In this document: in pieces, positions 41,728-42,481 of the stretch
How the letters are laid out: every line of letters starts with the position of its first letter
How positions within the stretch are numbered: position 1 is the stretch's first letter
Assembly: GCF_013122565.1 (NCBI RefSeq)
Contig: NZ_CP053258.1
DNA length: 64,000 bases
Source of the DNA: Escherichia coli
Lineage (GTDB): Bacteria > Pseudomonadota > Gammaproteobacteria > Enterobacterales > Enterobacteriaceae
Direction: 5' to 3' (one strand)
Position numbers and translations under genes: made by a program
Notes under the pieces: model-generated
What the model saw: the letters and a program-made list of their open reading frames with translations, nothing else
The model's database searches: none
Told to the model about the DNA's origin: nothing

Positions 41728-41814
41728 GAAAAGTTACCTGGATGAAATGTAGGGTTACGCGCAGTTTCCCAAGATGTGGGGATTTTCGCAATCCTGATGA
41801 AAGAAATTCTCACA

Positions 41815-42129
41815 CTACCAATGACGGCGAGGTTCCATCAGCTGATGAAGAATGCGCGCAATGAGAATGTCATCGACTCTTATAACGTAATAAACAGTGT
41901 GAAACCTAAATGCGATCTTCTTTACCTCTGGAATCGCATCATAGTCTTGCCCTATCTCGGGCATTTGAGAGAGTGTATCCAGAAAAATGCCGAGAGAGTC
42001 GGTATAGCGATCCGCCTGCTCCTCACCAAACTTTCCCAGCGTGTAGTCATAGATCCCTCTGAAATCTTCAACAGCTTTTCCGCTAAGCTTATACACGATG
42101 TTTTTGCTTCCTTTCTGCTGCGATATCAC
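41815..42129 (-). CDS. ParE/RelE-superfamily toxin of a type II TA module
   Basis: 104 aa; IVYKLSGKAVEDF...VYYVIRVDDILIARILHQLM fits ParE pattern; apparent GTG start 41 nt inside the upstream antitoxin ORF; absent between yajD and secF in K-12. Confidence 0.75.
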   Translation of the reverse strand: MISQQKGSKNIVYKLSGKAVEDFRGIYDYTLGKFGEEQADRYTDSLGIFLDTLSQMPEIGQDYDAIPEVKKIAFRFHTVYYVIRVDDILIARILHQLMEPRRHW

Positions 42130-42331
42130 GAAGCGTCATCGAACTTTCACCGCTCTCAAGACCTTCAATAACAGCATTTCTGACAGCTTCATCCCTGGAT
42201 TCTTGTTGTTCCAATAGACGAAGCGCTGAACGCATTACTTCACTGGCCGAGCCATAACGACCAGACTGGACCATCCGGGTAATAAAACTATCTAATTGTT
42301 CGCCAACGCTTACTGAGGTAATTTTGCGCAT
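42089..42331 (-). CDS. ParD-family (RHH/CopG-like) antitoxin
   Basis: 80 aa; SVGEQLDSFITRMVQSGRYGSASEVMRSALRLLEQQE matches ParD family signature; GGAGA RBS. Confidence 0.78.
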   Translation of the reverse strand: MRKITSVSVGEQLDSFITRMVQSGRYGSASEVMRSALRLLEQQESRDEAVRNAVIEGLESGESSMTLRDIAAERKQKHRV

Positions 42332-42343
42332 AAGCGATCTCCA

Positions 42344-42360
42344 TGTATTAACTATTAATA
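42344..42360 (-). promoter_or_regulatory. Inverted repeat GTATTAA-N3-TTAATAC upstream of parD-like gene, candidate operator
   Basis: Perfect 7-bp arms read directly, placed between putative -10 and RBS. Confidence 0.4.
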
Positions 42361-42481
42361 CAAAGTATATGTCAGAACTCTTTCTACAACCAAACCGTAT
42401 TCAGTTGCCTGTGAAACAGGCAAAAAAAACCGCAGCGCAAATACGCCACGGTTTTTTTAACATAACGGATTTAAAACACCC

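Follow-up and report, generated by a model that had tools for sequence, protein, structure and literature searches.

The 64-kb stretch of Escherichia coli DNA analysed here (hereafter the window) carries four minus-strand genes between positions 41300 and 42600, in the transcription order secF, parD, parE, yajD. The outer two are flanking core genes: secF (42482-43453, minus), which encodes 323 aa from a GTG start and was identified from its open reading frame (ORF), RefSeq annotation and a translation check, and yajD (41380-41727, minus), which encodes an HNH nuclease and was identified from its ORF and the RefSeq annotation of the matching region. The inner two, an antitoxin gene and a toxin gene, lie on a cassette of 687 bp (41795-42481, minus) that has taken the place of about 66 bp in the K-12-type spacer between yajD and secF. 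They are encoded on the same strand, antitoxin first, with an overlap of 8 nt, which is the geometry of a two-gene operon.

The borders of the cassette were mapped by aligning the window with a 4.63-Mb empty-site strain, an O157:H7 strain and strain ECCNB12-2. On the left, homology with the empty site extends as far as 41794; on the right, it begins again exactly at the secF stop codon (42482). An earlier reading made from the sequence alone (the sequence-only reading) had stated that yajD and secF are adjacent in K-12 and had placed a toxin-antitoxin (TA) module inserted between them, directly downstream of the secDF operon. The adjacency is found in the K-12-sized empty-site strain, about 5,000 of 5,426 complete genomes being without the cassette, and the position relative to secDF is correct as well, the right junction being the secF stop codon itself. 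The location of the module thus stands, but it is not a pure insertion: 687 bp were swapped for about 66 bp that included the native secF terminator hairpin. The secDF operon is essential. Neither a target-site duplication nor terminal repeats were seen at the cassette ends, by alignment and inverted-repeat search, and no mobility gene adjoins them. Within E. coli, the spacer between yajD and secF is variable; how TA cassettes of this kind enter intergenic sites was described as unknown in a 2020 review (PMC7167474).

The lost terminator is replaced by one from the cassette. A hairpin followed by a U8 run (42423-42458, minus), identified as an inverted repeat and by RNA folding, stands in for the native K-12 hairpin as the intrinsic terminator of secF, and the secF-parD spacer folds with -34.2 kcal/mol (z=-5.0). 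A simple terminator scan of 41300-42600 returned nothing, this terminator included, which was located by folding. RNA folding also gives a second small hairpin, GCCTGT-GAA-ACAGGC (42407-42421, minus), between the terminator and the parD promoter. At the other end of the module, the parE-yajD spacer (41728-41814, minus) has no stable structure (RNA fold z=+0.78), and the scan gave no terminator there, so that parDE transcripts could possibly read through into yajD.

The spacer on the far side of yajD also differs between strains. The tsx-yajD spacer is 37 bp long in the window (41343-41379) and in ECCNB12-2, and about 139 bp longer in the empty-site strain and in O157:H7 (1544-1719 of the locus compared); the extra DNA contains the REP-like palindromes GCCGGATGCGGCGTAAACGC and GCCTGATAAGCGTAGCGCATCAGGC.

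The antitoxin and the toxin

The antitoxin gene parD (42089-42331, minus) encodes 80 aa with an N-terminal ribbon-helix-helix of the PF03693 type, an assignment based on profiles and solved relatives. The protein matches Pfam ParD_antitoxin PF03693 over residues 1-64 (E=1.9e-22), scores 95.7 bits with TIGR02606, for which the cut-off is 46.2, and matches solved ParD chains in the PDB with E values from 2.9e-19 to 1.4e-8. Its closest solved relatives are ParD2 of Vibrio cholerae (VcParD2; 7b22/7r5a; E=2.9e-19) and ParD1 of Caulobacter crescentus (CcParD1; 3kxe; E=1.9e-13). ORF, Pfam and TIGR02606 together confirm the 80-aa ParD-family antitoxin with an SGRYGSASEV signature described by the sequence-only reading; the protein contains QSGRYGSASEVMRSALRLLE, and nearly the same stretch occurs in solved VcParD2 and CcParD1. 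VcParD2 (PDB 7R5A) is also 80 aa long and has in common with the window's ParD a QSGRYGSASEV-RSALRLLE core and the K/T/S residues of the N-terminal ribbon (K3, T5 and S6 in the alignment), which are said to contact DNA in VcParD2 (PMC10776004). The ParD family of plasmid RK2 (PF09386), which is unrelated in sequence to PF03693 ParD (PMC7848731), was also considered and was rejected, the Pfam scan giving PF03693, T2SSF, DUF7674 and RHH_1 but not PF09386.

For the toxin gene, the choice of start codon matters. The sequence-only reading had described a toxin of 104 aa with a ParE/RelE fold, and this length corresponds to the mechanical longest ORF (41815-42129, minus; GTG at 42129). We place the start of parE at the GTG at 42096, which gives a gene at 41815-42096 (minus) and a protein of 93 aa, because the homologues begin with MYKL (40 of 40 aligned full-length toxin homologues) and PGAP gives the toxin gene as 282 nt in E. 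coli records. From this GTG, parE has an overlap of 8 nt with the parD stop (GTGTATAA). The earlier length has thus to be given up, while the assignment to the toxin family holds, the protein matching Pfam ParE_toxin PF05016 (E=7.9e-14).

Several lines of comparison place this protein among ParE toxins. By sequence, it matches the solved relatives PrpT (E=8.1e-8), MtParE1 of Mycobacterium tuberculosis (9e-8) and CcParE1 (3.1e-7). Its AlphaFold2 model (pLDDT 94.7) has two long helices, preceded by a short strand and followed by a three-stranded sheet (E2-4, H6-23, H25-44, E58-63, E66-72, E77-84), and the 23 best Foldseek matches of this model in the PDB are all ParE toxins, the top five having TM scores of 0.86-0.90 (PrpT 0.90, CcParE1 0.88, MtParE1 0.87, VcParE2 0.86). 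When a profile of the toxin family built from 41 members was run against the PDB, it retrieved MtParE1 (7.5e-25), PrpT (1.6e-22), CcParE1 (3.3e-22), VcParE2 (1.7e-18) and weaker ParE chains, and no RelE, YoeB, HigB or YafQ chain up to E=10. A C-terminal RILHQxM motif is strictly conserved across the aligned ParE homologues. The structural homology to ParD and ParE on which the sequence-only reading depended is therefore present, in the solved ParD chains, the Foldseek ranking and the family profile.

These results bear directly on the alternative that the toxin acts not as a gyrase poison but as a ribosome-dependent mRNA endonuclease of the RelE kind. Either would fit the RefSeq name 'RelE/ParE family', PF05016 spans RelE-like and ParE-like toxins, and RelE, YoeB and HigB structures do occur among the weaker Foldseek matches; however, they appear only from rank 24 downwards, with TM scores of 0.5-0.7, the profile finds ParE chains only, and the partner antitoxin is of the PF03693 type, which pairs with ParE (PMC7848731). 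We have rejected a RelE-type mRNA interferase on fold and profile ranking and regard it as very improbable; between ParE and RelE, a choice that the sequence-only reading had not made, the sequence comparisons and the predicted structure favour ParE.

Both genes are correctly named in the RefSeq/PGAP records examined, as a type II TA ParD family antitoxin and a RelE/ParE family toxin. In sequence, the window's ParD and ParE do not differ from WP_001226938.1 and WP_000277485.1, respectively; the pair is thus the one in these entries and is known only through annotation. Profile matches (PF03693/TIGR02606 and PF05016), fold and RefSeq names thus agree with the ParD/ParE-like type II TA module that had been proposed. 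A pangenome study of 2025 (PMC12472240) lists the O157 allele of the toxin, WP_000277484.1, under the name 'Toxin ParE4' as a marker of the O157 serogroup, and the TAfinder-predicted systems of strain EDL933 were listed in the 2020 review (PMC7167474). We found no functional study of the yajD-secF parDE module in the literature searched; it may be mentioned elsewhere.

The putative promoter and its palindrome

Upstream of parD lies a perfect palindrome, TGTATTAA-CTA-TTAATACA (42344-42362; 13-31 nt upstream of the parD ATG), which we consider a putative ParD operator. The sequence-only reading had noticed an inverted repeat GTATTAA-N3-TTAATAC at the promoter; the repeat is there, and its perfect arms are 8 nt rather than 7 nt long. 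The window has a single copy of it, where shuffles give an expectation of 0, and the probability of an arm of at least 8 within 60 nt upstream of parD is about 0.007 under a first-order Markov model. A -10-like hexamer, TATACT (42364-42369, minus), lies one base upstream of the palindrome, preceded by a weak -35-like hexamer, TTGGTT (42388-42393, minus), at an 18-nt spacer; downstream, a Shine-Dalgarno sequence GGAG (42339-42342, minus) precedes the parD ATG by 7 nt.

This putative promoter is assigned from its position and from homologous loci. The latter have TATCAT/TATACT/TACACT-type hexamers where the window has TATACT, several of them have TTGACA about 17 nt upstream of the -10-like hexamer, and the TTGGTT of the window resembles the TTGGTA of Photorhabdus loci. 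With this assignment, the transcription start would fall inside the palindrome, near 42357, and bound ParD would thus block initiation.

The palindrome is conserved well beyond E. coli. Each of the 77 related loci examined has its consensus TGTRTTAA-N3-TTAAYACA directly after a -10-like hexamer, with the ParD start 28-44 nt further downstream. In the tally of 78 sites, made up of these 77 and the window's own, symmetric positions 4/16 are A:T in 4 distinct site types, G:C in 26 and broken in 3, and positions 6/14 are T:A in 17 and G:C in 5. An operator role is supported by this conservation with compensating base changes, and the paired changes are the pattern expected of a site bound by a symmetric dimer. 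A half-site variant for tests of ParD binding would change TGTATTAA to ACACTTAA, together with the symmetric change.

A counterpart is parDE2 of V. cholerae, a chromosomal two-gene operon that is autorepressed at an operator spanning the transcription start (PMC10776004). That operator has three GGTA boxes and is bound by a 6:2 complex (PMC10776004), whereas in the window one perfect palindrome of the 8-3-8 type stands alone; as the operator layout is unlike that of V. cholerae, the stoichiometry of regulation may be different. We also tried to fit the V. cholerae GGTA/GTA[C/T] layout to the window: GTAT/ATAC tetramers are present, but their centre-to-centre spacing of 13 and 7 bp does not fit.

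In one relative the symmetry extends much further. The locus of Photorhabdus asymbiotica (~2708-2762) has perfect palindrome arms of 27 nt, with a -10-like hexamer on both sides (TACCTCTATGCTATACTTTGTGTGAATAATTCACACAAAGTATAGCATAGAGGTA).

Distribution, alleles and relatives

Of the 5,426 complete E. coli genomes, 424 (~8%) carry the cassette together with both flanks, and most of these are O157:H7/O55:H7. A search with the cassette only recovered the same 424 genomes and just 2 partial matches more, all of them chromosomal, which indicates that in E. coli the cassette always sits between yajD and secF. In about 349 genomes the allele is 95-99% identical to that of the window (among the 95-99% matches listed, most O157:H7/O55:H7 strains are at 98.4-98.5% and a few at 96.5%), and in 77 further genomes it is at least 99% identical. 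Four DNA alleles were compared, those of the window, O157:H7, ECCNB12-2 and AR_0013. All six substitutions found in parD are synonymous and the protein is invariant, while ParE has two residue differences, confined to the O157 allele. Judged from these alleles, parD is shown to be under purifying selection.

Two strains deserve a separate mention. In AR_0013, whose allele is 96.6% identical, 15 of the 29 differences fall in the secF-parD spacer, several of them across the small hairpin (42406-42422), and both proteins are identical to the window's despite this spacer divergence. In E. coli E105 (locus 1245-2458), an IS3-family element lies between parD and parE; parD is cut to 231 nt and parE is separated from the promoter, an arrangement that has probably disabled expression of the toxin.

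Outside E. coli, a scan of one genome per bacterial species yielded 80 related loci, the best of which are only about 60% identical in the toxin. Their hosts are Gammaproteobacteria (Yersinia, Photorhabdus, Erwinia, Serratia, Vibrio, Marinobacter and others). A ParD gene lies directly upstream of the toxin gene in 78 of the 80, mostly with 80 aa and the 8-nt overlap, and none of the 80 is located beside secF, yajD or tsx. Homologues 58-63% identical are carried by 362 plasmids, from Enterobacterales and others. The nearest non-E. coli proteins are 60-66% identical.

The abundance of plasmid relatives has to be weighed together with the possibility that the module is intact and its toxin weak or non-toxic, being kept as an anti-addiction or cross-protection system against plasmid ParDE or as a gyrase-protective factor. 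Anti-addiction roles have been proposed for chromosomal TA systems (PMC7167474), ParE1 of Pseudomonas aeruginosa is documented as non-toxic or protective (PMC6368863, PMC11925232), and one strain tolerates an IS3 element between the two genes. On the other hand, ParE is conserved, with 2 aa differences between the O157 and window alleles, its strictly conserved C-terminal motif suggests a maintained activity, and cross-neutralisation of plasmid toxins is uncertain at about 60% identity. We therefore consider a weak toxin of this kind unlikely.

Still more doubtful, to the point of being very hard to credit, is a role of the pair in phage defence by abortive infection. General statements that some type II TA systems defend against phages (PMC7167474, PMC10440598) speak for it. 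Against it, PADLOC models match neither ParD nor ParE, a search of 50,697 phage records gave no homologue, and the neighbours of the pair are the core genes yajD and secF, with no flanking defence genes.

Some observations concern the wider region. Among 5,424 complete E. coli genomes that match the 22 kb from 28000 to 50000, none exceeds 97.9% identity with the window, whose lineage seems to be absent from the RefSeq complete E. coli genomes. The best matches to this region are O55:H7 and O157:H7 strains, in which espY3, annotated in these genomes as a type III secretion effector with pentapeptide repeats, and a hypothetical protein are found among housekeeping genes. The sraA sRNA (9592-9687, plus strand; 106.7 bits) is the window's only Rfam match above the gathering score.

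Proposed function of the module

We consider it probable that the two genes form a functional, autoregulated ParDE module. Several observations count against this reading: no NCBIfam model matched the toxin, identity between this ParE and ParE toxins whose activity is known is only 28-32%, the -35 hexamer is weak, and a scan of 41300-42600 for consensus sigma-70 promoters gave no call. The relatives with which the pair can be compared are nevertheless informative, in what they share with it as well as in how they differ. ParE2 of V. cholerae has the same fold as the window's ParE (TM 0.86) at 28% identity; its module belongs to the superintegron, whereas that of the window lies between two core genes. 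Gyrase poisoning has been shown for VcParE2 and would apply to the window's ParE by extension. ParDE1 of M. tuberculosis (8C24; PMC10899793) and ParD1-ParE1 of C. crescentus (3KXE) likewise pair a PF03693-type ParD with ParE, and their toxins (TM 0.87-0.88; 31-32% identity) have in common with the window's an R[IV]LHQxM C-terminal motif. These systems, whose activity has been measured experimentally, belong to other phyla or classes, and identity with them is only about 30%.

The top structural match (TM 0.90), PrpT of Pseudoalteromonas rubra plasmid pMBL6842 (7YCS; PMC7848731, PMC9731233), forms with PrpA a ParE/PF03693 pair in which the antitoxin represses its own promoter. PrpA also binds the iterons of the plasmid origin and controls copy number, whereas the E. 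coli cassette is chromosomal, with no replicon nearby. A further ParE-fold toxin occurs in the same O157:H7 genomes, namely ParE2 of the PaaA2-ParE2 system with PaaR2 of prophage CP-933P (5CW7; PMC8630535; TM 0.79). It is only 18-19% identical and belongs to a three-component, prophage-borne system with an antitoxin of another family; the yajD-secF module, in contrast, is a canonical two-gene ParD-ParE pair outside any prophage.

By analogy with VcParDE2, MtParDE1, CcParDE1 and PrpTA (PMC10776004, PMC10899793, PMC11925232, PMC7848731), the following mechanism is the most likely one. A single promoter just upstream of parD would drive both genes. As the parE GTG overlaps the parD stop, translation of parE would be coupled to that of parD, and less toxin than antitoxin would probably be made. 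With their N-terminal ribbon-helix-helix domain, ParD dimers would bind the palindrome TGTATTAA-N3-TTAATACA, and ParD, or the ParD-ParE complex, would repress the operon from there, because the palindrome sits between the -10 hexamer and the ribosome-binding site. The C-terminal tail of ParD would wrap around ParE and neutralise it. Free ParE would most likely poison DNA gyrase, leading to DNA breaks, SOS induction and growth arrest, effects that have been shown for the solved toxins closest to it. We infer DNA binding by ParD, the toxicity of ParE, its neutralisation by ParD, the gyrase target and any benefit to the host from such comparisons.

Gyrase is a reasonably likely target, put forward with less confidence than the module itself. 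ParE relatives inhibit gyrase and are autoregulated via an operator (PMC10899793, PMC10776004, PMC11925232, PMC7848731). At the same time, PaParE1 of P. aeruginosa is a non-toxic ParE (PMC11925232), and the target of O157 ParE2 is described as undefined (PMC8630535).

The module could also be more than a selfish or addiction element, through a promoter that feeds the HNH-nuclease gene yajD or through a toxin target other than gyrase. With the secF terminator replaced and none of the module's own before yajD, the autoregulated promoter could feed this gene, and a non-gyrase target is suspected for O157 ParE2. We regard such an additional role as very improbable; if true, it might help to explain the presence of the cassette throughout the sampled O157:H7/O55:H7 genomes.

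The yajD-secF cassette has already been annotated and is an ordinary representative of a family that has been studied well. The corrected start of its toxin (93 aa) may prove useful, as may the observation that a terminator for the secDF operon comes with the cassette and that none stands ahead of yajD. The family-wide consensus TGTRTTAA-N3-TTAAYACA offers a ready target for studies of ParD binding, and the functional ParDE module proposed here would place a candidate gyrase poison in a medically relevant lineage.
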